40,000 bases of DNA, from the NCBI GenBank assembly GCA_943356435.1, contig CALREY010000006.1:23084-63083 (forward strand), in the 5' to 3' direction. This DNA comes from Candidatus Altimarinota bacterium (GTDB lineage: Bacteria; Patescibacteriota; Gracilibacteria; BD1-5; UBA6164). The notes below the pieces were generated by a model. The model was not told the DNA's origin. It saw only the letters and a list, made by a program, of their open reading frames with translations, and searched no databases. The position numbers were made by a program, and so were the translations under genes. Positions within the stretch are counted from its first letter, which is position 1, and each line of letters starts with the position of its first letter. This document shows positions 3,713 through 38,400 of the stretch, piece after piece.

Positions 3713-4266
3713 TGTTGTTGTTTATAATAATCAGATAATTCCTTAGCTCACCAATTAAGTAATCTATATTCTGAAATACCTAGTTTTTTTGCATATTCAT
3801 ATATTAGTTCTTCATTTCACTCTATTTCTAAAAATTCATCTGTTTCCATTCAATCCAAATCTGAATATTTATCAAAATCAAATTGTATAGATTCGTTATT
3901 ATTATTTATCAAATAACTTACTCTTTGTTTAATACTCTGTCTAATTTTATTAAATCAAATAGATTCAAAAAATTTACAAACATCATCCATAGATTTTGTT
4001 TCAAATCAAGCTTCCTGCATTACTTTTCAATTTCCATTTCAAAATATCTGTTTTTTGTTTTCTACTATCACTATATCTCAATCTGACCTCACTCTTATTT
4101 CTATGTATTTTTCTTGTCCATCTATAATTGTATTTTGTCCATAAAATATTGCTGTTAAAACTCAATCAAATATTTTTTTTGCTCATAATTCAAATAGATT
4201 TTGTTCTATTTCTTTATGTCAAACTCATAGTACTTTGAATTCTGTTTCTATATTACTTGCTCACAT
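3700..4266 (-). CDS. CYTH-domain protein (CyaB-like class IV adenylyl cyclase / triphosphate tunnel metalloenzyme)
   Basis: 189 codons. N-terminal ExExK-type motif (NIETEFKV) and C-terminal FDFD..LDGMETDEFLEIEG. The 3' end overlaps the murF start by 13 nt. Confidence 0.55.
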
Positions 4267-8369: not shown

Positions 8370-9731
8370 TTAAAGTGATATATATATTATTCACATAATT
8401 CATAATATCATTGCTATTACAAATGATCACATTACATATCTACCAAATAATTTATCACCGAATTTTAATGCTATTGTTCATTTAACCATATTATTTGACA
8501 TAACTGCTAATAGTATAGTTGATACAGCTATTTCTGAAACAACTTTTGATTCTTTAGCCAATACAGTCATTGTCTGAGTAATTGCATCTACATCAGCAAA
8601 TCAAGAGATTATTCAAAATGCATAATAAAATACTGATTCACCCCATATATCTTTATATACTACACCTATTCAAGCTAGAAATTTTAAAAATAATACAAAA
8701 ATTCAAAATTTGATAGCTGGTTTTAGACTAAATGGACTTTCTACTCTTCATTCTAAAGATATATTTTTTGCTAATGGAGCTTTTTTTGATCTCAAGAAGA
8801 AATACAAAGTAACAGAAGCTAATCATAAAAACATCATGAATGCAGGAATAAATATAGTTCCAAGTAATGATACATTAATTAATAATACAATTAATATTAC
8901 TCTAAGTAACATTATAGAATTTGCTAATAATGCTCAAACTGTATATAGATAATAATTTTTTGGATCTTTTTTACTTTGTTCACTCATTGCAGCTGTAACA
9001 GCAGTAGATGATACTAGACCTCAAACAGCACTAGAAATAATTACAGAACCATTTTTTCATAGAAATTTTGATAATAAATATCAAATATAACCAATTGCTG
9101 ATATGGCAACAACGAAGAACCAAACTCCATATGGATTAAAAAATTCCATTTGCCAAATGCTATTTTGTAAATCCAATGCACCATTTACTCAAAATGAATT
9201 AAATAATGTTGCAAAAGAGAATTTTTTGTCTGGCAATACAGGTAATACTACAAAAGATACAACAGCAAATTTCATAGTATGTACTAATTCTTGTCTACTT
9301 ATACGAGATATGAAGTTTTCAGAAACATTTTTTGCTGCAAGTATTATAGAAATGATAATTGTAAATATAACTGGGAATTTCAAATCTAAATATACACAAG
9401 AAACTCAGATGAAAAATACAATTATTCATGCTATTTCTGTAGTTATTCAAATATCTTTATTCTTAAAAGATACATAAACATGTGATACCAATATAAAAGC
9501 AGCTACTATAAATAAAGTAGATAATACAAATAAACCATTTCAAAATGTCTTATCAAACCAAGCAGACATAGTTCAAAGAATTGCAATAATTGCAAAAGTT
9601 CTCACTCAACCATAAGAATCATCTTCGGCTGTTGATAAAAGTCACTTTTTTTCTGGTACATCTCTTTCTAATCATATGAAAGCACCTAATAAACCAGAAA
9701 CTAAAACATATAACAATAAATCATTTATCAT
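8370..9731 (-). CDS. MgtC/SapB-family plus DUF4010-type integral membrane protein
   Basis: 454 codons; in frame with track ORF 9189..9383. N-terminal GLLGAFIGLERD (MgtC-like), then GGLVSSTAVT and FADVDAITQT (DUF4010-like). Confidence 0.65.
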
Positions 9732-9785
9732 AATAAAAGATATTAAATATAATATATATTTTATTTTAACATATTTATAATTATA

Positions 9786-10628
9786 TTACAAATTACTAGC
9801 TATATTTTCTAATTCATATATTTTTCAATCCTTATCTGATAAATATAATTTATCATTTTGCATATAAATTTTTTGAACATCTATATCAGGTTTATATAAT
9901 ATTTTCTTATCCTTTGTATTTGAATTATATAACACTATCAAGTCTGAATCTGCATCAAATCATAGATTATTTAATACTCTTGATTCATCTTTTTTCACTA
10001 ATCATATATAAGAATCATTGTAGTAAACAAAATCATTGAAATAAGTAAAATATTCCAATTTTTTTTCTACATTAGAATAAGTAAAGCTTCATTTATCAGT
10101 AACAAATATCAATAAATCAGGAGTTAATTTTTTGATATATTTTATATCAATATTCAAATCAATTCATGAAATGACTGATGATAAAACATTGTAATAAAAT
10201 TTATTTTTACCTACTTCTATATATAAATCATTTAATGATCAATGAACTTCAGTTACTTTTAAAAATTCAGGATAAACTAAGTCAAAATTTCAGATTTTTA
10301 CTCTATCAACATACAAATCCAATTTATTATCCACTTCTTTGAAATATACTTTTGAAGCATTTTTTAGATTAAATGTTTTGTAATTTGATTTATCTTCCTT
10401 TAATTGTTCTATTTTTTGTTCATTTGTTAATTCTACAGTTTTTATATCTAATTTTGTTAGTTTTAATTCATTTTTTGCTTTTTCTACTTCTATTTTTCTT
10501 TGTTCTTGTTTTTTTAATTGATCTTCGATTCTCTTTTGCTTTTCTGGTATATATTTGTAGTTATAATAAAAATATCATCATATAATAACTCATATGATTA
10601 TAAAAAATGAAATAATTTTATTAAGCAT
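9786..10628 (-). CDS. hypothetical N-terminally membrane-anchored protein with coiled-coil segment
   Basis: 281 codons in code 25. One N-terminal hydrophobic helix followed by a K/E-rich stretch. No recognisable family. Confidence 0.45.
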
Positions 10629-12836: not shown

Positions 12837-13104
12837 ACTACATACTATTTAAAAATTATATGGATTATAATAATAAAATATCAATCATTTACAATCTATT
12901 TTTATAATTTTGTAAGTATTTATTGAAATAATTTAAATCTAGTAAACAAAAAATAAATGTAAACAACTAAATTTTGATATAAGTACAATAATTATTTATT
13001 ATTATATTTGAATTTAATTCTAAATAAATATAATAAATTGATAAATACTATGAATTATAAAATATAAAAATTTTGATAATAACTTATTTTGAAATTTTAA
13101 AATT

Positions 13105-14799
13105 ATGAACAAACTATTATTGTGAATAATCGGTGCATTTTCAATTATTATAATACTTTATATTTCTTACAATATATTTTTTAATAGTAATAAAGGTACT
13201 ACTTTTGAAGGTTATGATTCTAAGATGATAGAACAATGTAAAAGTATGCCAAATATGAATTGATGTAAAGAATATACTAAATCAATAATATGATGAGCTA
13301 ATGATTCAAAATATTATAATCCAATAGAATTAAACCAAGATGACGTTAAAAATTCAAACAAAGTAAGTGTTATTGAATTAAAAGATTGAGATGTTTATGA
13401 AATGGTTGTAACTAAAGTAATAAAGGAAATTTGAAATTCTAAAGTAGTAATGTTTGCTTATAATGGAAGTGTTCCATGACCTATTATTAAAGTAAAAAAA
13501 GGGAGTGAAATAACAATAAAATTTACAAACAAAGTAAAAGAAATAGACACTACTCTTCATTCTCATTGAATAAGAATTGAAAATAAATATGATGGTGTTC
13601 CAAAAAGTATGAATTGAAATCAAAAAGCAATTAAATATTGAGATACTTTTGTTTATAAAGTAAAATTTAAAGATGAATGAATTTATTGGTATCATCCACA
13701 TGTAAGAGAAGATTTACAAATGGAACTTTGATTGTATTGAAATTATTTAGTTAATCCTGAAACAGATGAATATTGGTCTAAAGTAAATACAGAAGAAACT
13801 ATTATTTTAGATGATATATTAATAGAAAATGATAAAATAGCACCTATAGCAAATAGTTTTTCTAATTATCTATTTTCATGAAGATATTGAAATACAATGT
13901 TAATAAATTGAGATGCTAATTATTCATTAAATGTTAAAAAATGAGAAACAGTAAGATTGTATTTTACAAATTCATCAAATACTAGAGTATATAATGTAAA
14001 TATCCCTTGAGTAAAAATGAAACTAGTATGATCAGATATGAGTAAATATGAAAACGAAACATATGTAAATAATTTTATAATTTCTCCAGCAGAAAGATAC
14101 GTAGTAGAATTATATTTTGAAAAACCTTGAAATTACAAAATACAAAATGTAACTCCATCAAAAACTTATGTACTATGAAATATAAATGTTTCAAATGCAA
14201 TTGACTTAAAAAATTATAAAAAAGAATTTGATACATTGAGAAAAAATAAAGATATAATAAGTGATATAGATAATTATAGAGAGTATTTTGATAAACCAGT
14301 TGATAAGAATTTAATTTTAGCAATATCACAAAAATGAATAAAATGATGAATGTATTCTATGTGAGATATGTTAGAATGAAATAAAGATTTTGTTATGGAT
14401 TGAATAGAATATGAAGATGCTAATATAAAATTAAATAAAATGTCTAATTCTAAAAATCTAGTTTGGAAGATAATTGATAAAGATACTCTAAATGAAAATA
14501 TGGATATAAATTGGAATTTTAAAGTATGAGATAAAGTTAAAGTAAAAATATTTAATGATAGTAATACTTTATACCACATACAACATCCTATACATTTTCA
14601 TTGACAAAGATTTTTAGTAATAAATAGAAATTGAGTTAGACAAACCAATTTAGTTTGGAAAGACACAGTTTTAGTAAAAGAATGAGAATCAGTTGATATA
14701 TTAATAGATGTAACTAATCCTGGTGATTGGATGGCTCATTGTCATATTGCAGAACATTTAACATGATGAATGATGATGAATTTTAATGTAAAAAAATAA
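13105..14799 (+). CDS. multicopper oxidase (three-cupredoxin laccase/CueO-like), paralogue 1
   Basis: 564 codons. N-terminal hydrophobic anchor. Copper-site motifs TLHSHG, WYHPH, HPIHFHG, WMAHCHIAEH. Very many in-frame TGA at Gly positions. Confidence 0.8.
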
Positions 14800-18531: not shown

Positions 18532-18801
18532 TTACGCGAGAATGAAATAAAATTCTTGTCTTTTTTTGGTAAAATCTTGACCATTCAGATTATTAAATTC
18601 ATCTAATGTAATGATAAATTTCTTGGCTGATTCTTCATTGTCAAAAATCAAATCTTCCCCTTCATATTCTTCAGAGACCCACAAATAGGGATTTTCATCA
18701 GAATTAGGATTCTTAACCAGTCTAGGGACATCACTATTTCTTCTACGAATTTTTACTTTTTGAGTATCTGTATCAGAACCGTCTAAAAAATTATCACTCA
18801 T
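18532..18801 (-). CDS. small acidic protein (89 aa), UGA-free
   Basis: Start chosen at the ATG (rc 18799-18801) that follows AGGAG plus 6 nt. Track ORF 18532..18840 begins at an upstream TTG. Three Gly, all GGN. Uses rare GCG/CTC/CGT codons. Confidence 0.5.
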   Translation of the reverse strand: MSDNFLDGSDTDTQKVKIRRRNSDVPRLVKNPNSDENPYLWVSEEYEGEDLIFDNEESAKKFIITLDEFNNLNGQDFTKKRQEFYFILA

Positions 18802-18869
18802 TATATTCTCCTGTAATTTGATTACAAACGACATAATCAAGTCATTCTTGAAGTCTTGTAACTTTAAGT

Positions 18870-18897
18870 ATTATATATATAATATTATTATTGTCAA
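18870..18897 (-). promoter_or_regulatory. sigma70-like promoter (TTGACA-N16-TATAAT on minus strand)
   Basis: rc TTGACA at 18892-18897 and rc TATAAT at 18870-18875. Confidence 0.5.
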
Positions 18898-21762: not shown

Positions 21763-22290
21763 TTAATTATGACCAAGTTCATCACCATCGTCATGATTAT
21801 CATCATCAACACTATCTTCAGAATGATGATCGTGATCTCAAAAATAACTAGCTGGCACAAACAAATAAGCTAATACAACCAAAGATGTTATAGATAATGA
21901 AAATAATGATAAAACTGCTAAATTTTTCTTTAAATCCTTAAATGATAATCATTCTTTCAATGGAAAAATTGCTAAAGAAAGTATAAATCAAAGAGGGATT
22001 ATCCATAAACTTCTTTCTGGTGAATCAAGAAAATGTTGTAATCATCAATTTACCATTCAAATAGAAAGAGAATAAACAACTCATACAAACAAAATTTTTA
22101 AATAATTAACATCTTTTAATGATTGTTTTTGAATTAATTCTCAAACAATAAATAGTATAAATCAAATAAAAGCCATAATTATACTTCTCTCTCAGCTAAA
22201 AAATCAATGACTTATAGAACCTCATATAAATCAAACACCAATATAATGAAATAAATCACCTAAATACTTTTTTCAATTATTATCTAACAT
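21763..22290 (-). CDS. membrane protein with His/Asp-rich C-terminal tail (last gene of copper operon)
   Basis: 176 codons. About five hydrophobic helices. Tail is GDHDHHSEDSVDDDNHDDGDELGHN. Confidence 0.5.
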
Positions 22291-22316
22291 AAATATAAAA
22301 AACTTAAATTATTAAA

Positions 22317-23981
22317 TTATTCTTTAACACTAAAATGCATCATCATACCTGAAAATAAATGCTCAGATATATGACAGTGAGCCATCCATTCTCAAGGATT
22401 ACTCATATCTGCTAATATATCAATATTTTCTCATGTTTTTAATAATACTGTATCCTTCCAAACTAAATTTTCTTGTTTCTTTCAATCTCTTGATACAACT
22501 AAAAATCTTTGTCAATGTAGATGAAATGGATGTTGCATAGGATGAGCCGCATCCTCTTTTTTATTTTCTATATGGATTTTTACTATATCTCATTTTTTGA
22601 ATTGCCAGTTTATATCCATATTTTCTTTTTTTGTATCTGTATCTATTATTTTCCACTCAAATTCTTGAGAAGTAGATGTCTGATTCATCATAGGCATACT
22701 ATCTTCCCATTCAATATTATCTTGAGATGTATTTCACATCATCATTCATCAATGAGACATATTTCACATTCAATCTTCTCAAATTCATCATTTTTTTCAC
22801 AATCTTCATAATTCTAAACTCAAATTTTTATCAGCTTTTTTATCAAAATAAGGTTTATATTTTTCTATATCTTGTGTAGTATCAGCATTTACTTTCAATG
22901 TCTCAAAATCAGTTTTATAAGAAGTTTGGATTTGTTCCTTTGAAACTATTACTTTTCAAATTATATAATTATCATTTGGAGTACTATTTTGTATTTCAAA
23001 ACTACCAGATTCAGGAGCAAATAAATCTACTATATATCTTTCTCATGGAGCTATTGTTATATTATCTACATAACTTTCTCTCTCATATTTTCAATTATCA
23101 GATCATACTAATTTCATTTTTATTCAAGGGATTTTGAAATTAAATACTCTAGTATTTGCTACATCAGTTAAATATACTCTAACTACTTCTCATTTTTTCA
23201 AATTCAATTTATAGTCAGAATCTCAATTTACAAACATAGTATTTCAAAATCTTCACATTAATACATAATTTGTAAAATCTTTATAAAAAGGTTTTAATTT
23301 ATTCCCATTTAAATCTATATCATCTAGAATTATATTATTTTCACTATTAACTTTTGAATAATAGTTTTCATCACTCGGTTCTACTATATAATTACCATAT
23401 AATCATAATTCTTGTTGAATATCTTCTCTCAAATGTGGATGATACCAATAAATTCATACATCAGGGAAACTAAGTTCATAAGTGAAACTATCTCATTCTT
23501 TTATTGGATCTTGTTTTCACATCATATCTTTCACAACTCAATCAAACATATCACTAAGTCTCAATCAATGAGAATGTAGCGTAGTTTCTAAATCTGCTAC
23601 TTTATTTACAATTGTTACTTTTGCTTTTGTTCAAACTTTAGCTTTTATAATTGGACCAGGAATACTTGAATTATAAGCAAGCATTTCAACTTGTTTTCAT
23701 CAAATATTTTTATTTATTTTTGTGATTTCTATTGTATAATTATCCCCTTCTTTCAAATTCACTATTTCTTGTTTTTTTTCATCACTAGCCAATTGTCATT
23801 TTCAATAAACTAATTCTTTTGTTGAAATATTTTTATCAACTCCATGATTCATCATTCCAGAATTCATATTATTATTATTCATTCACATATGCATATAATT
23901 TATACTATATGGATAAATTATATATCCTATTAGTAAAGTTAATAGTACTACTAAAAGTAATATTATTGTATTTTTTTTCAT
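22317..23981 (-). CDS. multicopper oxidase, paralogue 2, with Met/His/Gly-rich insert
   Basis: 555 codons. Motifs TLHSHG, WYHPH, HPFHLHG, WMAHCHISEH. Insert GMGNMSHGGMMMGN..SMPMM. Confidence 0.8.
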
Positions 23982-24006
23982 ATTTTAATTTCTTATTATT
24001 ATTTAA

Positions 24007-27000
24007 CTACTTAACTATCTTAAAATCTTTTTTTGATACAAAATGCATCATATCATAACTAGTAAATGTCTTCTTTAACTGCTTTATTACTATTACATTA
24101 TTTCAAAAGAAATCTGTTAATTTATCTCATATATTTTTTATAAGTCACAATTTAAACATCATATTTGTATCAGTAAATCATACATACATATTTATAAATC
24201 AATTATTAGTAAATGAATTTGTATCAATCTGATTTACAAAATACTTTGGTATATTAGTATTGTCCATTAAATAAAATGTTCTAATTGATAAATTATCAGG
24301 TGTTGGGAAAAATACTAAACTTGTACTATCTCATTCAACTATATCATAATTACTAGAATTAAAAATATGTACTTCATCCAAAAATGTATCAGTCTTAGCT
24401 AAAATACCTACAACTTTCACTTTTTCTAATCAAAAGAAATTTATTAATTCATCTCCTACTCATTTTATTAGTCATAATTCTATCATCATCTTTGCTTCCA
24501 TATATCATATTACTACTTCATTGCTTTTTATAGAATTTATTCAAGTTTTTAATTTAAAACTTTGTGGAATTTTATCAGTGAATAAAAATATTTTTGGAGC
24601 ACTAGTTTCTTCTATATTTATCTTATTTTTTGAATGAACTATAAAATCTGTAATATCTGTTAATACTTTTTGATTATTAGTAGTATAAATTTTTTCGAAA
24701 TTATATGATTGATTTATAGAAGCAAATGAAATAAATATAGATAAAAATAATAAAACTAAAAAAATCAAACTAACAGTTGAAAAATATTTATGTTTTACAC
24801 TTATTCTAAGTAATAATGAATTAACAACAACTGAAACACTACTCATTGCCATAGCTAATCATGCAAACTCAGGCTTCAAATATAATCAATAACTTATAAA
24901 TACTCCTGCAGCAATAGGTATTCATAAACTGTTATAAAATAGTGAGAAAAATAGATTTTGTTTTATTTTAGACACAGTTTGTTTACTCAGATTTATAGCT
25001 TTTACTACATCATTTAAATCATTTTTCATCAAAACTATATCAGAGCTCTCAAGTGCCACATCATTTCCAGATCACATAGCAATAGCTAAATCACTATTCA
25101 TCATAGCAATAGAATCATTTATTCCATCTCATACCATAGCTACTTTATGATTCATTTTTTGTATTTGTTTTATAATATTTCCCTTTTCTTGTGGAAGTAC
25201 TTCACTAAATACATTTTCTAATTTTATTCACACTTTGTTTGCTATGAATTCTGCTGAATATTTATTGTCTCATGAAATCATAAATACCTCTATTCAGATA
25301 TTTTTCAATATAGAAATAGCTTCAATAGAAGTATCTTTTACTTGGTCACTTACTGAAATTAATGCTAATATTTCATTATTATTTGCTAAAAATAATACTG
25401 TTTTTCATTCTCATACTAGTTTTTCATAATTATCTAAAACTGCTTTATTTAATGATAAATTATAATTATTAAGTAGTGATTTATTTCATATTATATATTC
25501 TATATCTCATATTTTTCAAACTACTCATTTTCAATTAATTATTTTAAACTCGCTTGTTTTGATTAACTCAATATTTTTAGATTTTGAATATTCTACAATA
25601 GATTTAGAAATAGGATGATTTGAATTATTTTCAAGTGAATAAATTATCTCTAATATATCATTTTCTGAGTAAGAATTATTTATAATAATCAAGTCTTGAA
25701 ATGAAGGATTTCAATAAGTAATTGTACCTGTTTTATCCAATGCTACTGCTGTAATATAATTTGCTTTTTCTAGTGCAGAACCTCATTTTATCAGTATTCA
25801 TGATTTAGCTCATATACCAGTTCATACTATAACAGCTGTAGGAGTTGCCAATCCTAGTGCACAAGGACAAGCTATAACTATCACACTACAAGCTAAAAGT
25901 ATTGAATTCTCGAAACTTGAACTAAGTAAAAAATACCAAACTAAAAATGTTAATATAGACAATATGATAACAATCGGTACAAAAACTCTAGATATTCTAT
26001 CTGCAAAAGATTCTATATCAGATTTCGATAAACTAGCTTCTTCTAGTAGATTTATTATTTGATAAAGCATTGTTCACATTCATACTTGAGTAGATATTAT
26101 TTCAAAACTAGTATGTTGGTTCAATGTACCTGTTAAAACTTTATCTCATGTATTTTTATCTATTGGTAGACTTTCTCCTGTAAGCATAGATTCATCTACT
26201 GATGCATATCAAGATATTATTTTTCAGTCTACAGGTATTTTATCTCATGGTTTTACTAGTATAGTATCTCATACTTTTATTGATTCTATATCTTGCTCTA
26301 TAAACTTATCTCCTACTTTTACAAATGCTGTTTTTGGAGCTAAAGACATCAATTTACTAATAGCTTCACTAGTTTTTGATTTAGCTCTTGTTTCTAGATA
26401 TTTTCAGAAACATACAAAAGTAATTAATAGTGCAGATACTTCGAAATAAATTCACTCTATTTTCATTCCATTTAAACCTAAAATACTTCAAGTATCTAAG
26501 TAAAAAATTATAAAAGAATATAAGCTATAAACAAATGCTACAGTTGTTCATATTGCAATTAAACTATACATATTAGCAGTTTTTTGTCTAAGAGCGGCAT
26601 AAAATCATCTATAAAATTCCAATCATAAACTAAATTGTAAAATAGTTGAAATTAAAAATGATACAATTGCCATATATGGCATAATAACTTCATTGTAATC
26701 TAATCATTTTACGAAATCATATACCATAAATATGATTAATGGAATAGATAATATAAATCAAAAAATACTTTTATACAACCAATCTTTTGATTCATCTATT
26801 ACTTTTGTATCGCTAGTTGAAGCTTTGTATCATGATTGTTCAACTATTTTAATAATTTCACTTTCTGTTATCTTTGTTTCATCATATTCAACCAAGGCTT
26901 TATTATTTCAAAAATTCACTTTTGATGTGATAATATTTGGATTATCAGATAGATTTGATTCTATTATTTTAGAACAACTTGAACAGTGCATTCAAGAAAT

Positions 27001-27018
27001 ATTTAATTTTGTTTTCAT
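24007..27018 (-). CDS. copA: copper-translocating P1B-type ATPase with in-frame ~265-aa C-terminal extension
   Basis: 1004 codons. Motifs: HMA GMHCSSC, TGES, VIACPCALGLATP, DKTGT, GDGIND, AMSSVSVVVNSLLL. In frame with track ORFs 24541..24852 and 25822..26070. No TAA/TAG until 24007-24009. Confidence 0.85.
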
Positions 27019-27023
27019 ATATT

Positions 27024-28340
27024 TTATTTAACAATTATAACTCATTGTCACATTCACATAGTTCCACATACTACATCATATTCTCACTGCTTAGCATTAT
27101 TTATATCATAAGTAATAGCTTGTCATTTCAATATATATGAAACTTTTGAGCTAAGTTTTGGGATTGTTTGAGTAGACATACATCACTTACCATTTTCACT
27201 TGGTAGTACTGTGATTTTATAATTTTTTCATTTTTCTAATACCAATTCTTTTGGATCCATTTGATATCAATCAAATCATACAGTTATTTCTTCAACATCA
27301 TTGTTAATAGTTTCAGTATTAGTAGACTCTTTATTTTGAGTAACTTGATTTGTATTATTACTTGTACTTGAAAAATTTAATAAGTTATAAGAATTTGAAA
27401 CAGTAATAAGTCAGAAAAATATTAGTACTGCTGCAATAATTTTATTAAAAATAGGAAATTTCTTTCATTCAAAATAACTAGACCCTAATCACAATGAAAA
27501 CAATACAGGAAAAGTACCAATTACAAAAAATAGCATAATTAATCCACCTCAAATAAAACTTCAGCTACTTACAGCTAATAGTTGCATAGCCTGTGTAAAT
27601 CAACATGGTAGAAAAAATGTCAATACTCAAGCTATTGGAGCATATTCTGGTTTTCATAATTTTTCTATTTTAGAAGCAAAACTTTTTGGCATATGAATTC
27701 AAAATCTAGATATAGATGGTAGTATTCATAATATATTTAATCATATGTATAACAAAATTATTCACACGAAAAATGTCAGTATAGATCAAATAGAAAAACT
27801 TAAACTAAATAATTTTCAAGTAAGTCAAAGAAGTCAACCTAGTAAGAAAAATCATATAATTCTTCACAATTGAAATCATAACTGTACTTTAATATGTCAG
27901 TTAGTGGTATTTGTACTATCTATATATTTTGAAAATCATATAATTAATCATCCTGTAACTGCTAAACAAGTAGAAATAGATGCTATCAATCATACTAACA
28001 ATGCTCATGAATAACTCAAAGTAGAAGTATCTGGTATATATTTAATTGAATCAAATAATCAAGTAAACATAAATAATATAATGACTATTAATAATGCTAT
28101 GATATTTGTAATCATATTATTGTTTCAAGTACTATTTATTTGATTAACTTTATATCAATTTTTTTCTATTATTTTTATCACTTTTTCATAATCAGATTCC
28201 CTTTCATAATCTATTTCCATTATTCACTTTTTGTAACTTATCATAAGTAATTGTACTCAAGTAAGTTTTTTTAATTCTTTTTCTAGAATCATTTCACAAC
28301 TTATACAATGCATTCACTTAATGTTTATTATTTTTTTCAT
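27024..28340 (-). CDS. HMA domain + TauE/SafE- or DsbD-like permease + C-terminal cupredoxin-like domain protein
   Basis: 439 codons. N-terminal GMHCISCE. About six helices, including FFLPCGFTQAM. C-terminal roughly 90 aa with C..VVCGTMGMGQG. Its stop lies 5 nt before the copA start. Confidence 0.6.
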
Positions 28341-28365
28341 TTTAATTTGATTATGTTTTAAGTTT

Positions 28366-28495
28366 TTCATAACTCTATCCTGAATCCTTTCTCTTACTTA
28401 AGAGAAAGGGGCTACAAAATGAGCATCCCTCTCTTAAATAAGAGAGGAATTTATGCACGAAGGGAGGTATCCTGTGGACAAGGGTGAGTTATGAA
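28366..28495. other. GC-rich multi-hairpin module bounded by 10-bp inverted repeats (structured RNA or MITE-like insert)
   Basis: TTCATAACTC at 28366-28375 is the rc of GAGTTATGAA at 28486-28495. Internal hairpins: CCTTTCTCTT/AAGAGAAAGG (28386-28409) and CCTCTCTT/AAGAGAGG (28428-28447). Confidence 0.5.
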
Positions 28496-28553: not shown

Positions 28554-28982
28554 TTAAGTATTTGATTTTATGATTTTTATTAAATCTATATAAGAATAAT
28601 TCTTTATATCTCGATTAATAAAAGGTGGTGATGTCTTATTTAATAAATTCTTATTTGTAAATGAATTAATCGATACTGCAAATATATCTGTAAAATTAAA
28701 TATTTTTATTTTTTCTTTTTTATTATCTGACTCCCCTATATTTGATATATTTGAAAAAGTAACTCAATCAGAAGATATACAACATTCATGATTACATTCA
28801 TCGTCACTATCTTCATCTTCTGAACAACAATCATTTTTTTGATTTCAATGTATATGACTATTATGATCCATATTCATTTCTATCAATGCATTTTCTTGCA
28901 TAGCAAAAGTAATCATTGGTGTATGAAACATTCCAATGATTAAATAAACAAATAACATAAATGATGAAAATAAATATTTCAT
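28554..28982 (-). CDS. secreted Cys/His/acidic-rich small protein (putative metal binding), first gene of copper operon
   Basis: 143 codons. N-terminal signal-like helix. Cluster HNSHIHGNQKNDCCSEDEDSDDECNHECC. Confidence 0.5.
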
Positions 28983-29013
28983 AATACTGATTAAATATTT
29001 TACTAACATTTAT

Positions 29014-30749: not shown

Positions 30750-31889
30750 TTAGTTAAATTCTACAAGTCCTCCTTTATATTTTGAAATAATAGTAATACT
30801 AGGAAAATCTCTCTTTGTTATTTCCCCACACACTTTAGCATCGATATTGTGTTTTTCAGCAATAGATAACAAAATATCAACATCATTTTTATCAACAATT
30901 GCCAAAGCACCTTGACCTGCATTCCATGTTTTATAAAGATCCCTGTCAGTCATTTCTCTCCAATCAGCACACTGCCTCATAATATCAGGCAATGGATACA
31001 AATCGTATAAATAAGCTGACAATCCTTTGCGATAAAGTAAATCACCTAGTTTTGATTCGAAACTACCACCAGTAACATGTACAATTCCTTTTATATCGAT
31101 CCTTTCGTCCTCTAACCATCCATTTGCATCCACAAATACTCTATCGTACAAGATAGATGGAACAGCAGCAGCCATAATTGATTCAAATGCTATTTGTTTA
31201 TTGAACCAGTTGTCACCAAACTTCATTTTGAATGCTTTTCTGACTGATGATATACCATTGCTTCTAAAACCATTTTCCTTGAAAGCAATTACAATATTGC
31301 CTTCTTCAATGTTTCCACCAGTTATCATTTTGTCAGGATGAAATAGTCCATGAACTGATGCACCCCAATTGTACATGAGAGTCGCATTTGGATTTTCTGA
31401 TGAAACTAGAGATGATAACTCTGCTGTTTCACCATTTAATACAATGATTCCAGATTTTTCAGCTGCTTTGAGTAATCCAGCATATAGATTAAGTACTGCA
31501 TTGTAAGTGGGAGATTCAATAGACTCTCCTAAACTACTTACATCCAGAACAGAAGTCATATAGACAGGAATACCTCCCCAACGAACTAAATCAAAAGAAG
31601 TCATTGCCAGCAAATCGTAAGCAGACAATATATGAGTACCAACAGCATCAGTCAAAACTACTTTGGTACCGATTCCATCAGGAGCACAGCTCCAAAAACA
31701 AAAACTAGAATCAAATTCAGGCTTTAACTGAATAGCTCTAGGACCACGAAAATTACCATTGCTAGTATCTACTACATTCGCAATTGGTGAAAAAGTGTAT
31801 GATGCTTGGCAAACTTTTGCAGCAAATTTTGAAGCAGAGTCACCTAAATCTACATTAACACCATCGCTTGAATATATCTCACCCGCCAT
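30750..31889 (-). CDS. PurM/AIR-synthase superfamily protein (divergent phosphoribosylformylglycinamidine cyclo-ligase-like), UGA-free
   Basis: 379-aa ORF, intact even in the standard code. Motifs DGVNVDLGD, APDGIGTKV, NGETAEL, NGFRSNGIS. GGAGG (rc 31896-31900), 6 nt, then ATG. Confidence 0.8.
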   Translation of the reverse strand: MAGEIYSSDGVNVDLGDSASKFAAKVCQASYTFSPIANVVDTSNGNFRGPRAIQLKPEFDSSFCFWSCAPDGIGTKVVLTDAVGTHILSAYDLLAMTSFDLVRWGGIPVYMTSVLDVSSLGESIESPTYNAVLNLYAGLLKAAEKSGIIVLNGETAELSSLVSSENPNATLMYNWGASVHGLFHPDKMITGGNIEEGNIVIAFKENGFRSNGISSVRKAFKMKFGDNWFNKQIAFESIMAAAVPSILYDRVFVDANGWLEDERIDIKGIVHVTGGSFESKLGDLLYRKGLSAYLYDLYPLPDIMRQCADWREMTDRDLYKTWNAGQGALAIVDKNDVDILLSIAEKHNIDAKVCGEITKRDFPSITIISKYKGGLVEFN

Positions 31890-31932
31890 AACTCACCTCC
31901 GAAACTAAAAAAAGACTAAAAAAGTCTGCATA

Positions 31933-32435: not shown

Positions 32436-33890
32436 TTATAAATCTAAGTATTGATCAATTCTAATTTGCCATACAAATTCATCCACATGCGAAACTAATA
32501 TCATACCTCATTCAAACTCATCTAATGCTTTTGCTATAACTGGTATATGTCTGAAATTGATATGATTTGTTGGTTCATCTAATATTAGTACACCTGGTTT
32601 TAAAAATACCAATCTACAAAATGCTACCAATCATTTTTGTCATTCTGATAAATCTCAGATTCTAGTTTTCATTATTTCTCAAGTAATTAGAAATCATGCA
32701 GCTGTAGATCTAAGCTCTTGTTCTCATATATCATCAGTGCAAGCATCTCTCAAACAATCATAAACTGTTTGATTGAAATCTAGATTTGAAAAGTCTTGTC
32801 TATAATACCCTATTTTTACTCAAGGTGTTAATGTACATCATGATTCATCTTCATTTACTATTTTTTCTAATAGTGTAGATTTTCAAATACCGTTTGGACC
32901 AGATAACAACAAATGATCATCTTTTCTGATTTTTATTTCTATATCTCTTTCTTCTACTTCATCATGATTCATTATATGAACTGAATGCAATTCTAATAAT
33001 ACTCAACCTATATTTTCTTGTAGTGGAATAGTGAATTCTCTAATTGTTTTATCATCTTTTCTAGTATCTACCATTTCATCCTCCATTTCTTCTGCTGCTT
33101 CTCTCATCTTTTTTGCTACTTGTCTCAATTTTCATCATTTATGAGCAAATACATTTGCTTGTTCTTTTTTTGCTTGTGCTTCTTTTTTTAGTCTAGCATT
33201 AGCCATATTTTCTTTTTCCTTATTTCTCGCAATTTGTTCTACTACATCGTGATAATCTCACACGAATTGTTCTACTTTTTTTGTATGAACATCCAAGTAT
33301 AATACTCAATCAGTAAAACTATTCAAAAACTCTGCATCATGTGAAATAACGAGTACTGTATTAACATAATTTTGTAAAAAATCAGTTAAATGCCATATAC
33401 CATCTTTGTCCAAATTATTAGTTGGCTCATCCAGAAGTAAAATATCAGGATTTTGAATCAATGCTGCAGCTAATAACAATCTAGCTTGTTGACCTCATGA
33501 AAAAGCAGATATTTTTTTATCTAGCTTTGTTTTTAGATTTACTACTTCTAGTATCTCAAATATTTGTTTATCAATATTAAAAACACTATCATCTTGGTAA
33601 TATTTTCTAAAAAATTCTTGTACTGTTAATTCTTTATCTTCAGCTTGTACTACTTGATAACCAGTAGCTATAGTCAATTTTTTGTCTATATTGATTACTC
33701 ATCATTTTTTTTCTAATTCACCATTTATCAATTTAAAAATTGTAGACTTACCTGCACCATTTTGTCACATAATAGTTATTTTAGAACCTTTTCTTACATT
33801 AAAAGTAACTTCTTCTAATATAGGTTTTCTAAAATCATAGTGAAAATCTACTCATTTAAAACCAATAACCGTCTCATTTGAAACACTCAT
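32436..33890 (-). CDS. ABC-F family ATPase (two ABC domains, no TM domain)
   Basis: 485 codons. Walker A GQNGAGKST and GPNGIGKST, signatures LSGGQ-type (FSGGQQ, LSEGQK), Walker B LLLDEPTN and LILDEPTN. In frame with track ORF 33495..33677. Confidence 0.85.
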
Positions 33891-33985
33891 TTTTAAATCT
33901 AGTTAATAATAAAAATATTTAATTGAATAAATAACGAATGTAACTATATTTAAAAATGTCAAAAAATAAAGAAAATAAAAAAAAT

Positions 33986-34049: not shown

Positions 34050-34826
34050 ATGAGTAAATATTACAATTCAAAATTCTATAACAAAGCAATAGAAGTAGCT
34101 AATATATTCTGAGAAATAATAGTGATAGTAAGTGATAACAAAGATAGAGAAATTATTTATACATGGTATGATGTAGAAGAAAAGAACACTGAAAGCAATT
34201 ATATAAATAAATGCTTACTCGGGTGATTTATAAAAAAAATACCAAAAAAAGTCCTCATAATATGATTTGGTTGATGAGCATTTGCTAAATATCTAGAAGA
34301 CCATATAGAAAATATAAATATAGACTGAATAGATATAGATGAAACTATGTTTGAAATAGCAAAAAATGAATTGAATGTAAAAACAAACAATTTCTACATT
34401 ATGGATGCTATAGATGCACTAGATAAAATAATTGAACAAGATAAAAAATATGATTTAATACTAATAGATGTATATTGAAGTGATTGAGAAATCCCTAATT
34501 ATTTCTGAGAAAAAAACTTTTTCGAAAAAATAAAATATGTGTTATTAGATGATGGAGTTTTATCTATAAATTTAGCTGATTATGATTTAAATAACTTAGA
34601 AAAAACTCAAAAATATAATAATATTCACAATAATTTGATAAATATTTTTTGAGAATACTACTCTCACATATTAGCAGGAATAAATGATAGATGAAATGTA
34701 TCTGGTATTTATAATCTAGATAAAAATTATAATTCTTGAGATTTTGATAATAATTATTTAGATAAAGTGAAATCTGGAGAAATAATATTTGATGAAAAAA
34801 TCATAAGAAATACAATTAGTGAATAA
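34050..34826 (+). CDS. class I SAM-dependent methyltransferase / spermidine-synthase-like protein
   Basis: 258 codons. Motifs VLIIGFGGGAFAKYL, DGIDIDE, DLILIDVYG. Confidence 0.5.
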
Positions 34827-34841
34827 TTTTTAAATAAAGTA

Positions 34842-34869
34842 TTGACATTTAATGTTTTTATTGTAATAT
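34842..34869 (+). promoter_or_regulatory. sigma70-like promoter (TTGACA-N16-TAATAT)
   Basis: TTGACA at 34842-34847 and TAATAT at 34864-34869. Confidence 0.45.
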
Positions 34870-34962
34870 ACCGAGGATTAATCTGATTTATTCATTTATA
34901 ATATCATGTATTAGTCAACAATGCATTGTTTAAACCGTAGTTATTCCCCTTAGGAGAAGTAA

Positions 34963-35382
34963 ATGTTAGTACGATTATTTGTATTTTTGATTGCTATTAT
35001 TGGAAGTGGTAATACTTTCGCATCTGTAAGTCATAGTGATGATGATTCATCTGGTCCATCATTTGGCGTTCATAGCTACAACGGTCACGATCAGGACCAA
35101 GAAGATCAAAATGGTTCTGGTCATGAATCGGATGATGAACATGGCAATCAATTTCACGTTGTATTCGACGATGAAAACGGCAGAAAAGAACATGAAGCAA
35201 AGTTGAAATTTTATGAACATAGAGATGAGCATGAACACTCACACTATCCTCAAAATGGTTCTCCTGCTCCTGTTCCTCTACCGGCTGCATTCTGGTTTAT
35301 GATGAGTGGTATACCTTTGTTATTCACTCGTCGCAAAGCAAAAATTTGATTTAGCTATTTGATAAATATGCTAGATTGATAA
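34963..35382 (+). CDS. secreted His/Asp/Glu-rich protein with PEP-CTERM/VPLPA-CTERM-like C-terminal sorting signal
   Basis: Track ORF 34963..35349 ends at a TGA. Under code 25 it runs 11 more codons to TAA at 35380-35382. Signal peptide, His-rich middle, then PVPLPAAFWFMMSGIPLLFTRRKAK. AGGAG, 6 nt, ATG. All 11 Gly are GGN. Confidence 0.6.
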
Positions 35383-35387
35383 ATATT

Positions 35388-35419
35388 GGTTTTCGCTATT
35401 ATGCGAAAACCTTTTTTTT
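35388..35419 (+). terminator. rho-independent terminator with GC-containing stem
   Basis: Stem GGTTTTCGC/GCGAAAACC followed by T8. Confidence 0.65.
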
Positions 35420-35462
35420 ACAAAAAAACAAAAAAAAATATCCAAATAAATTTGGATATTTT

Positions 35463-38400
35463 TTAATTAGTATTTGGCATCAATTTACTAATAAATCAAG
35501 GTGATTCTCTTTTTATATCTCTAGTATTTATATATCTAAAAAATGAATTTCTAAAATCATTTCAAATAAATTCAGACTCTATTGGCAATATAGAAGTAAT
35601 CAAATCTTTATCTTTACTATTATTCAAAGCTAATAATCAATCTTTTATTTTACTATTTTTAAAAATATTATATATTCATTCAAATGTTCAACTTGTAGAT
35701 TCATCTGATAATAATGAATTAATCAAGCTTAATAATTCATCTAACATATTTTTTATATTTATATGATTAATATTACTAGTATCATAAATTGTTTTTAAAT
35801 CATTATTTATTTTAGACAATATATCTTTATAAATAATTAAATCTTTTTTAAATGTATTTGGTCAATAGACTAATTGTCATCATATAAAAGTTTTCTTCAT
35901 TTTTGGATATTCATACTTTTTTCAAATAGACTTTTCAACACTTTCAATAATTCTCATCAAATAATTCTCAGCCAATCAATAAACAAACTTAGCTTCTCAT
36001 AAATTATTAATCAAAGTAATAACCTTTTCATAACTTTGCATTTTTAATTCATTATCATAGATATCTTCTATTCTTTCTCATGATGCTTGTAATATTCAAT
36101 TCAACTTTTGAATATGTAAATTGATATTATCATTTGTTAATGATGCTCCTATTATTTTTCATACTATATTTTTTCATGTTCAATCATCCATTAATAATAT
36201 CTTTTTCAAATCAGAAACTATAGTAGACAAATATATTTTTTTTACTTCTTCTGTTTGTTCATCATAAGAAATAATCAAAAATTTTATCTTTCTAACTATA
36301 TCTAAGTCATTTTCTATTCTAGCTTTATAAGGATTATAAACATAATCTAATAATGGTTTTAAATCCTCATTTTCTACTTTTCAAATTAATGGATTATCAA
36401 TATTTGCTATGTAATCTTTGAATTCCTCTGTTTCAAAATAAGAAAATGCTCTTAATAATTGTTCTCTATTAGGCCATTCTTCATCTAATCAATCATATAA
36501 ATTGTAAGGTCTCAATTGAAAATCTCAATATGATTTAATTCAAAAATAAAATTTAAATTCTTTGTCTTCTAAATTTATATCATTATTGTCATCTATACTA
36601 GGTAAATAATAGTCAAAATTTATAGTAAATTTCAGAAAATTATTATTCTCATGCATCTGTTTATACAATCTTTTGAATCAATTACTTCATACAGGGGTAT
36701 AACTCTCCATATTTATTACATTTTCCAATATATTATTATTTTGAGCTAATGGTGAAACTAAATCTATTACAAATTCATCCACAGGAGTTAATTGTAAATC
36801 TGGTGAATGAGTATCTACTGATATTTCTTCTATTATCTTGTCTATTTTTTCTAGATTTATTATCATATCTACTCATTCTGATATTTTACCATTCAAGAAA
36901 TCTTTTGGATTAATTAATTGTGTTTTATATGAATGTTTTATATATAATGCTAAAAATTTCCTTTGTTGTAATTCATTAAAACTAGAAAATAAATGTAAAT
37001 GTGGTAAAAAATCACTATTCAATTCTGCATGTAATAATATCTCATCTCTAATTCTGTTTAATACAGATCTATATGAATCACCTGGTAGAGTAGTAACTTG
37101 TACAAAACTTTTCATGACAGAAATCTCAGTTTGTGGTAGAGATTTTTGTTTTTTCTTTTCTGAAATATATGATTTAAATACTTTATTAATATTTTCTGAA
37201 GAATAATATGGAATAGGTGCATTTATATTAAAAGCTCAATCATTTAAATCATTTTCACTTTGCATATAACCAGATATTTTGAGTGCATTTATTTGCAATG
37301 CATAAAAATAATTCAAAAGAGCTTTATATTTCTTTTCATAAGCTTGATCATTTTTGTCTAGTTTATCGAAACTATCTTTTTCATATACTAATATCTTTGC
37401 TTTTATTGCACTTTCTACAGTATCTCATTTTTTCAGAGAATAAATTCATTTTGTTTCCAGATCTCAAATAATACGATTGTCATGACTTCATACTCATAAT
37501 ACTCATACAGCAGGTTCTAGATATTCAGATATAACAAATGTTCAAACTCATATCAATTCCCATAGGAATCTAGTTCTTGCATTCATATTTTTTACTTTGT
37601 CTGGATCACTAGAATTTACCATATGTAAACCATCTATCATGATTGGTCCTGATACTTCTATTTTGTCTGTCGATTGTATTTTCAACATCTCACTTGCCTC
37701 TTTTTGAAATTCTTCACTTAGATTTATTTCTTTTCAATTAACTTTTATATGAATAATTTCACTGAATTTATGTAGATTTTTTTGTACTAATTTTTTTTGC
37801 CAATCTGCTAATGCACTAGTTCAATAATCAGCTCTTTGTTGAATAAAATTAGTCAAAAAATCAAAAACTGACATATTATCATTTTTTGAAAACTCAGCAA
37901 TTTTGAAATCATTTACAAATCATACATTTGAAGCATCAAAACTAAATGAATCAATCCCTGCCAATGTAGTCTGATGAGTATTATAATGCTTATCTTTTCT
38001 ATTTCTATTATGTTCAGCTACTACTCATTTATAATGACTATATCTAAAATATAATGGTAGAATACTTCCAGGAATTCATTGTTGTTCTATATATTTAGAT
38101 AATTCTATTACTTTTGAGTCATAATTCTCTTGATTTTCGGCTGGAATTGGATTTTGGCTTCATACTAATCATGCAGAAAAATTATCCATCAAATTAAAAC
38201 TTTGTACATATCAAATATTTTTCAATGCATCTGGTAATATCCATGCATCTAGTCATTGTTTTTGAAAAAAAACTTTTTCTTTATCTGTAAGTTTATTTTT
38301 GTCTACTGCAAATGCTAAAAGAGTACGAATCAAATTCGCACAACTAACTGTTTCTTGTCTTTCTACATCAACTATATGTGGTAAATAAGGGTCAAATTCT

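Follow-up and report, generated by a model that had tools for sequence, protein, structure and literature searches.

Proteins with a PEP-CTERM or VPLPA-CTERM domain (NCBIfam models TIGR02595 and TIGR03370, respectively) combine an N-terminal signal peptide with a tripartite C-terminal signal that consists of a signature motif, a hydrophobic stretch of about 15 residues and a basic cluster. Such signals have been described only from bacteria having an outer membrane and an exosortase, and they are located at the extreme C-terminus: A median of 3 extra residues follows the domain, and in 87% of the proteins there are fewer than 10 (Haft et al. 2006, PMC1569441). Here, we analyze a gene with this architecture in a bacterium of the Candidate Phyla Radiation (CPR) that reads UGA as glycine (genetic code 25). 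The gene extends from an ATG at 34963 to 35346 on the forward strand of a 40,000-nucleotide stretch of contig CALREY010000006.1 (Candidatus Altimarinota bacterium, assembly GCA_943356435.1, positions 23,084 to 63,083), to which we refer as the window. As read from the sequence, its 128 sense codons encode a signal peptide, a region rich in His, Asp and Glu, and finally VPLPAAFWFMMSGIPLLFTRRKAKI; the C-terminal end reads PVPLPAAFWFMMSGIPLLFTRRKAKI, with RRKAKI as the last residues, and is directly followed by a TGA codon at 35347–35349. We propose that this TGA is probably the original stop of an imported gene, which the present host reads through.

Alternative genetic codes are often called firewalls to gene exchange; for genes imported into organisms with UGA = Gly, the only predicted defect is the read-through of UGA stops (PMC8080830). 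In Vampirococcus lugosii, 126 genes were acquired by horizontal gene transfer, and imported UGA stops are predicted to be read through (Moreira et al. 2021, PMC8080830). The gene described here is a concrete case of this prediction, yet it differs in its fate: While read-through is regarded there as a barrier that gives aberrant proteins, purifying selection preserves this gene, and different lineages share it. Horizontal transfer into code-25 CPR bacteria is known; new are a VPLPA-CTERM-type gene in a code-25 host and a natural example of stop read-through at a variable site. A literature search on exosortase and PEP-CTERM in CPR bacteria returned nothing relevant.

Genetic code and foreign origin of the gene

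An earlier note, made from the sequence of the window alone, had assumed a code-25 host, and both open reading frame (ORF) coverage and the position of TGA within conserved motifs bear this out. ORFs of at least 100 codons total 48.7 kb in the window if TGA is treated as a sense codon, compared to 8.7 kb if it is treated as a stop. Alignment of the ABC-F protein encoded at 32436–33902 (reverse strand) to solved ABC-F structures places TGA at Gly of the Walker A motif (GxxGxGKS) and of LSGGQ; likewise, TGA stands at Gly of the GDGxND motif in a P-type ATPase of the window. Because TGA thus aligns with conserved glycines, the code is confirmed as code 25 and not code 4. Homologues of the SpeE-like methyltransferase encoded next to the gene carry the annotation Candidatus Gracilibacteria. 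A gene for tRNA-Gly(UCA) was not found within the 40-kb window. In code-25 organisms every UGA is decoded as glycine.

Against this background the composition of the gene stands out. TGA accounts for 529 of the 702 Gly codons (75%) in the other genes of the window but for none of the 11 that precede the first TGA of the gene (GGT seven times, GGC three times, GGA once), for which the probability under the background is approximately 2e-7. The UGA-free interior with GGN at all 11 glycines, already pointed out in the earlier note, is therefore far beyond chance. GGC alone makes up 3/11 of the Gly codons in the gene versus 3/702 in the background. The five Arg codons are CGA, CGT, CGC and twice AGA, so that CGN reaches 3/5 compared to 3.8% elsewhere: CGN codons are unusual here, as had been stated, but the accompanying claim that they are not seen in neighbouring genes is wrong, since they are rare and not absent. 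The guanine + cytosine (GC) content of the ORF is 0.39 versus about 0.23 in the background, and at third codon positions (GC3) it is 0.23 versus 0.09–0.16; the non-coding DNA 5′ of the ORF (0.24), the segment between the first TGA and the TAA (0.22) and the terminator region (0.27) lack this elevation.

One might object that a native gracilibacterial gene could acquire such a composition through its amino-acid content or its short length, or that the locus is an assembly chimera. Richness in His, Asp, Glu, Gly and Pro does lift the GC content at codon positions 1 and 2 (0.56 at position 1), and one related contig (L003) has GC-rich, chimeric-looking ends. However, the synonymous choices, namely the lack of TGA, the shares of GGC and CGN and the GC3 value, deviate too, and a sister lineage has a clean empty site at this position (see below). 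Moreover, the inserted cassette that carries the gene recurs with 100% identity in two other assemblies (L001, L002) and as variants of about 90% identity in two more (L003, L004), next to a shared downstream neighbour; being identical in independent assemblies and variable in two others, it is not an assembly artefact. This objection is thus very improbable and effectively refuted. Given the deviant composition and the empty site, the gene is foreign to its code-25 genome.

The C-terminal signal and its relatives

The signal occupies 35272–35346 and comprises VPLPA (residues 104–108), the hydrophobic stretch AAFWFMMSGIPLLFT, the basic cluster RRKAK and a final Ile. The motif, the hydrophobic stretch and the basic cluster agree with the PEP-CTERM architecture of PMC1569441, and an N-terminal signal peptide is present as well. 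Their position at the extreme C-terminus depends on the code: With the TGA as stop, the protein ends 25 residues from the V of the motif, which is exactly one domain length, whereas the code-25 translation runs for 36 residues and ends 12 residues past the last basic residue, which does not fit.

The formal family check proposed in the earlier note went against the assignment. TIGR03370 recognizes the protein with 18.2 bits (E = 0.002) over profile positions 1–14 only, below its cutoff of 25.35; TIGR02595 gives no match, and neither does Pfam including PF07589. This failure to reach the curated VPLPA-CTERM and PEP-CTERM cutoffs weighs against our interpretation. On the other hand, relatives from standard-code organisms with canonical ends (P0006, P0007, P0009, P0010) likewise score only 18–22 bits on TIGR03370, which is why the cutoff discriminates poorly in this subfamily.

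A word-indexed search of 5.8 billion proteins recovered one near-identical cluster only. When a profile built from the three known variants was run exhaustively with HMMER, three distant relatives emerged, and iteration gave more. Eight of these (P0004 and P0006–P0012; 97–183 amino acids) resemble the target in a signal peptide that starts with M-K/L-I/V-R, an acidic, His-rich middle and a C-terminus of the form VP[LV]PAA[LV]W[LM][FL]GSG...[RK][RK]xx. They differ from it in that they share only 25–33% identity and end 1–3 residues past the basic cluster, at a TAA with the exception of P0004. The latter passes both TIGR03370 (31.6 bits) and TIGR02595, and its stop is a TGA two residues past the basic cluster.

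In a scan of one genome per species, matches to the C-terminus were confined to Proteobacteria: Methylomarinum, Methylomonas, Methylomicrobium, Thiogranum, Parvularculaceae and other Gammaproteobacteria and Alphaproteobacteria. The last 25–31 residues of the target are 53–68% identical to these C-termini, and its VPLPA aligns to VP[LV]PA in 20 standard-code proteins. A profile of these 20 C-termini recognizes the target over its whole length with 50.4 bits and finds no further ORF in the window, a test that is partly circular as the sequences had been retrieved by similarity to the target. These comparisons support a PEP-CTERM signal of the VPLPA type at the C-terminus and show its homology to the proteobacterial ones. 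The earlier assignment to the PEP-CTERM/VPLPA-CTERM architecture thus stands with respect to motif, hydrophobic stretch, basic cluster and homology, but not with respect to the curated cutoffs.

The contigs of the relatives look proteobacterial as well (about 43–44% GC; e.g., GCA_945861705.1, contig CAMAVM010000017.1). There, the genes have other VPLPA-CTERM genes as neighbours, with a CusA/CzcA-like RND gene upstream and iscRSA-like genes downstream; the RND gene, which matches TIGR00914 with 636.6 bits (cutoff 701.45), is one gene apart from the relative in locus L008. One such contig stems from sequencing run ERR5863107, and the cassette of the window occurs in run ERR5863103; as the two accession numbers are close together, both may belong to one study. 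With regard to the proteobacterial source suggested in the earlier note, the relatives thus point to a donor of this type, but they are distant, and the homologue searches run yielded no close donor.

A further homologue, P0005 (27% identical; positions 1–625 of L005, ENA ERZ27248911), comes from a contig of 22% GC. It shares the signal peptide, the VPLP motif, the −35 box, blocks of the leader and the Shine–Dalgarno sequence with the target, and none of its four Gly codons is TGA. Its TAA follows right after the hydrophobic stretch and the basic cluster is lost; the C-terminal end of this family is thus evolutionarily labile. P0005 also counts against our interpretation, as the family may have long resided in AT-rich organisms.

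The first TGA as the probable original stop

Beyond the first TGA the frame continues with TTT AGC TAT TTG ATA AAT ATG CTA GAT (FSYLINMLD), a second TGA at 35377–35379 and the effective stop TAA at 35380–35382, so that the tail at 35350–35382 together with the first TGA translates under code 25 as GFSYLINMLDG (11 residues). The ORF, the TGA after RRKAKI, the 11-residue tail and the TAA had all been described in the earlier note and are confirmed from the sequence. We consider it probable that the first TGA is the original stop and, given the established decoding of UGA as Gly in code 25, is now read through. Our searches returned no close homologue from a standard-code organism that carries this leader and 3′ end, and we infer the original stop from several properties of the segment.

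First, counted from the motif's V, the 20 standard-code proteins end after 22–29 residues (median 26); the target reaches the TGA after 25 residues and the TAA after 36. The stop positions of standard-code homologues, a comparison that the earlier note had called for, hence bracket the TGA. Second, precisely where the first TGA stands, the GC content goes down from 0.39 to 0.22, and the tail thereby reaches the level of the non-coding flanks. Third, the segment folds: The 34 nucleotides from the first to the second TGA (35346–35379) form an RNA hairpin of about 15 base pairs, including G-U pairs, with −9.0 kcal/mol (z = −3.4) in the window, −10.3 kcal/mol (z = −3.8) in L004 and −7.1 kcal/mol (z = −1.9) in L003. 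The succession of stop, AT-rich hairpin and GC-stem terminator recurs in unrelated cassettes of another gracilibacterial genome, L024 (see below). Fourth, the three variants all keep the first TGA, and the segments on its two sides evolve differently: The sorting signal has accumulated 8 synonymous versus 2 non-synonymous substitutions, while the tail has 0 synonymous and 2 non-synonymous ones (TTG>TTT, Leu>Phe; and, in L003, second TGA>AGA, Gly>Arg), a statistic that for the tail rests on two substitutions. Finally, the read-through length of 11 codons is close to the expectation for a random frame in this genome (median 12).

An alternative is that the tail is genuine and original, i.e., that the TGA is an ordinary Gly codon (for instance a former GGA) and the true end has always been the TAA at 35380. 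Long post-anchor tails do exist: P0016 measures 35 residues from V to the end, and both PEP-CTERM proteins of L024 measure 36, with native TAA stops and coding-like evolution. Moreover, L003 and L004 preserve the tail almost unchanged, and an extended C-terminus, which the earlier note had named as a finding that would speak against read-through, is thus formally present in other code-25 genomes. These two tails do not demonstrate selection, though, as the DNA is about 90% identical and both tail changes are non-synonymous, in contrast to the ratio upstream. The long tails, together with the missing close standard-code homologue, argue against the TGA as original stop and make a long tail as an original feature not impossible. 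However, the only two TGA codons of the frame fall into its last 11 codons while all 11 upstream glycines are GGN, the GC content falls at the first TGA, the segment is an RNA hairpin with one TGA in each arm, and none of the 20 standard-code C-termini compared is as long. Hence, we regard a genuine tail as quite unlikely, the least probable of the accounts given here for the TGA.

A second alternative assumes that position 35347 originally carried a TAA or TAG and that a later A>G change after the transfer produced the TGA. In line with this, most of the standard-code relatives end in TAA, and one mutation in a common ancestor would suffice to explain the TGA in all three variants. This route, however, needs an extra mutation against the strong AT bias of the genome (GC3 about 0.12), and P0004 shows that TGA stops occur in the family. 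We therefore find a stop loss after transfer improbable; its outcome would be the same, as the former 3′ untranslated region (UTR) is translated either way. Taken together, the core of the interpretation holds: a foreign gene with a VPLPA-type signal whose ancestral UGA stop is probably read through.

The cassette and its insertion site

The boundaries of the insert become visible by alignment with the empty site of a related Gracilibacterium (L022). There, the SpeE-like protein is 86% identical to that of the window, and only 40 bp separate its stop from a large convergent gene. As both junctions of the window align to this site, the insert extends from about 34827 to 35415 (approximately 590 bp), with an uncertainty of a few bases, as the junctions fall into A/T runs. 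It begins directly behind the TAA (34824–34826) that terminates the SpeE-like methyltransferase gene and ends directly before a native 15-bp perfect inverted repeat, AAAAAATATCCAAAT/ATTTGGATATTTTTT (35433–35464), which is also present in L022 and probably serves the convergent host genes as a terminator in both directions. The cassette is missing from L023 and L025 as well.

The insert is a complete expression unit that comprises promoter, leader, Shine–Dalgarno sequence, ORF, hairpin and terminator, close to the limits proposed in the earlier note. The promoter-like site is of the sigma-70 type (TTGACA, 16 nucleotides, TAATAT; 34842–34869), agrees with the consensus at 10 of 12 positions and is the top site of the region. 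It is followed by a leader of about 93 nucleotides (34870–34962) with AGGAG at 34952–34956, 6 nucleotides before the ATG; the blocks TAGTCAAYAAT, TTTAAAC and TAGGAGAA are common to this leader and that of L005, in which the −35 block is kept as well. Behind the ORF and the hairpin, an intrinsic terminator (35388–35419; GGTTTTCGC-TATTAT-GCGAAAACC followed by T8) forms a 9-bp stem with 5 GC pairs; the terminator scan found 2 such sites versus 0.2 expected. Both the AGGAG-N6-ATG arrangement and the GC-stemmed terminator had been noticed before and are present as described. The region 35340–35425 folds with −23.3 kcal/mol (z = −5.5), and an Rfam search of leader, tail and terminator gave a chance-level match only (E = 0.83).

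The same gap, which separates the SpeE-like gene from the large convergent gene, is occupied differently in the gracilibacterial metagenome-assembled genome GCA_028688895.1 (L024). It harbours two tandem paralogues (8898–9536, 212 amino acids; 9727–10371, 214 amino acids) that have a GC content of 0.41 versus 0.26 for the locus and use TGA for 0/23 and 0/22 of their Gly codons. Their VPEP-TM-KKK PEP-CTERM domains pass TIGR02595 with 25.3 and 24.1 bits (cutoff 16), and each gene has its own TTGACA/TATAAT promoter, a TAGGAGA Shine–Dalgarno sequence and, after the stop, an AT-rich hairpin and a GC-stem terminator. The pair thus shares the insertion site, the lack of TGA, the own promoter and the hairpin with terminator with the target, but the mature domains are unrelated, the motif is the classical VPEP, and the stops are TAA, hence no read-through arises. 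Furthermore, the 13-residue tail behind the anchor is genuine coding sequence in the L024 pair, whereas in the target it would be a former 3′ UTR.

Further genes with few or no TGA codons lie directly 3′ of the SpeE-like gene on other Gracilibacteria-like contigs: a REC-PAS-HD protein in L032 (4818–6065, reverse strand; 0 TGA, 25 GGN Gly codons), a PHO4 phosphate transporter in L037 (4901–6634, reverse strand; 0 TGA, 48 GGN) and an unannotated 313-residue ORF in L033 (1981–2922, reverse strand; GC 0.40, 1 TGA, 16 GGN). It appears that imported genes have landed at this site repeatedly.

As to the mode of insertion, several candidates can be set aside. The 11-mer TTGATAAATAT occurs five times in the window versus 0.64 expected, at 34635, 35359 and 35376 (forward strand) and at 3865 and 17074 (reverse strand); three copies lie within 750 bp around the cassette, two of these inside the read-through tail. 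It is not a target-site duplication, since the copies at 34635, 35359 and 35376 miss the boundaries at 34827 and about 35415. An integron gene cassette was rejected because the insert has its own promoter and the hairpin behind the stop is, by inspection, devoid of the AAC/GTT cores of an attC site. Among JGI metagenome contigs and IMG/VR viral contigs, we found no close relatives of the gene and no sign of a phage vehicle. The GC-rich ends of L003 (Logan SRR25014987, variant P0002; 1–168 and 1456–1485) are unrelated to the gracilibacterial backbone, and at the 5′ end about 57 open codons lead into the gene's start codon. Both ends are probably chimeric tips. The GC-rich DNA upstream was rejected as a donor context, since the opposite contig end lacks homology and is rich in GC too, and since the gene in L003 has lost its Shine–Dalgarno sequence. 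If the ends were real, they would represent a second piece of very recent foreign DNA beside the cassette.

Elsewhere in the window, two genes share features with the insert. Three kilobases away, an AIR-synthase-related protein (PF02769/PF00586, 379 amino acids) is encoded at 30750–31904 on the reverse strand by a second, larger foreign-looking gene with a GC content of 0.36 and 0/33 Gly codons as TGA; its stop is not TGA, which precludes read-through, and the syntenic region of L024 lacks it. An ORF at 18532–18870 (reverse strand; 100 amino acids from the first ATG, no Pfam match) has 0/3 Gly codons as TGA and the highest GC3 of the window (0.28); it is possibly imported as well, though its length does not suffice for a judgement.

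Selection and spread

The ORF is under purifying selection, with dN/dS values of 0.25, 0.17 and 0.13 for the three pairs of variants. The flanking gene divides the loci into two backbone lineages: The window and L004 are 92% identical and L003 and L022 are 87–94% identical, compared to about 75% between the lineages. The window, L004 and L003 carry the cassette, L022 does not. Between the lineages it is 86–90% identical, and its dS is 0.25 as opposed to 0.80 in the flanking gene. It follows from this contrast that the cassette has moved between lineages of Gracilibacteria, was gained repeatedly, or was lost in L022 and evolves unusually slowly. The gene has therefore become established under selection within a mobile gene pool and is not frozen at its transfer. 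The earlier image of a gene caught crossing the genetic-code barrier is overstated in view of the purifying selection, the three variants in two lineages and the diverged homologue P0005.

Topology, sorting and function

The proposed course of events runs as follows: The gene would be transcribed from the cassette's own promoter and the protein exported via its signal peptide, MLVRLFVFLIAIIGSGNTFAS (34963–35025), whose n-, h- and c-regions were judged by eye; it is kept in P0005 (MIVRLFIFMM...) and resembles the MKIR... leaders of the standard-code relatives. In a standard-code organism translation would terminate at the TGA right after RRKAKI, while a code-25 ribosome would insert Gly and run for 10 more codons, including the second UGA, to the TAA. 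The hydrophobic stretch and RRKAK would act as a stop-transfer membrane anchor, in agreement with the positive-inside rule that has been argued for the PEP-CTERM anchor (PMC1569441). The acidic, His-rich domain would thereby be exposed outside the membrane and GFSYLINMLDG would come to lie on the cytoplasmic side past the basic cluster, harmless to both export and anchoring; if a sorting enzyme cut at VPLPA, the tail would be removed together with the anchor. Such tolerance of a C-terminal tail would explain how a UGA-terminated gene could survive across a code boundary.

The ectodomain (35026–35262, 79 amino acids) contains 11 His, 11 Asp and 9 Glu (39% in total; pI 4.8), and its H-x-x-(F/L)-D-D-E motif and EHEH-type runs recur in P0004–P0012. 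The mature part is of low complexity and probably disordered, and judging from its sequence the ectodomain is probably a surface domain that binds divalent metals or the matrix. For metal binding, the evidence consists of the composition and of the CzcA-like gene upstream of relatives in L008 and L010, a basis that counts against this part of our interpretation.

A copper/metal cluster of the window (13045–14799, forward strand; 21763–28397 and 28554–29009, reverse strand) comprises two multicopper-oxidase-like proteins, an HMA P-type ATPase, an HMA-DsbD_2 protein, a small Cys/His-rich protein and a membrane protein ending in DHDHHSEDSVDDDNHDDGDELGHN. All of these genes are TGA-rich and hence native, and the part from the ATPase to the MFS gene is kept in L024, whose insertion site holds different genes. 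Membership of the cassette in this cluster was rejected: It lies about 6.5 kb from the nearest copper gene, and its site holds unrelated foreign genes elsewhere. The fit with nearby copper genes that the earlier note had seen is consequently positional only, as the copper genes are part of the conserved backbone and the insertion site is variable.

Is the signal still a working substrate of an exosortase, either of the own genome or of a Gram-negative host, with anchor and tail discarded and the read-through without effect? The C-terminal signal is under strong purifying selection, as the excess of synonymous changes attests, and the two TIGR02595-passing proteins at the same locus of L024 suggest that such signals are repeatedly kept. 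In addition, an episymbiotic or predatory life on Gram-negative bacteria has been described for Gracilibacteria and related groups (PMC8080830, PMC11393006). Arguing in the opposite direction, Pfam reveals no exosortase among the polytopic membrane proteins of the window that were scanned, which agrees with the earlier note, nor does any appear in the precomputed Pfam tables of the five syntenic loci (L001, L022–L025). The gene is the lone ORF with the motif in 40 kb as compared to a median of eight per genome with the system, PEP-CTERM signals have been described only in outer-membrane bacteria with exopolysaccharide genes (PMC1569441), the literature found does not tie exosortase to CPR bacteria, and the homologue P0005 manages without the basic cluster. 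A working substrate therefore seems unlikely to us.

A more far-reaching possibility, which we put forward as a speculation and hold to be rather doubtful, is that code-25 Gracilibacteria, which probably live on Gram-negative hosts, repeatedly capture host-type PEP-CTERM/VPLPA-CTERM cassettes for surface proteins at one intergenic hotspot behind the SpeE-like methyltransferase gene and keep them functional and TGA-free, so that proteins of the host-matrix type would cover their own surface for attachment or mimicry, possibly with use of the sorting machinery of the host. C-terminal anchors would then be unusually able to cross the code boundary, as their tail is either cytoplasmic or cleaved.

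Conclusion

The locus is a cleanly delimited natural example of an import across a code boundary, with an empty site, defined boundaries, a tail that resembles a former 3′ UTR in its composition, its folding and its substitutions, and a gene that is still conserved across lineages. The predicted read-through entails a specific peptide, IGFSYLINMLDG, that proteomics could detect. Moreover, the locus puts PEP-CTERM-type signals, which so far have been tied to outer-membrane bacteria, into CPR genomes. It indicates that the code barrier is soft in the direction of import, at least for proteins with a C-terminal stub in the cytoplasm.

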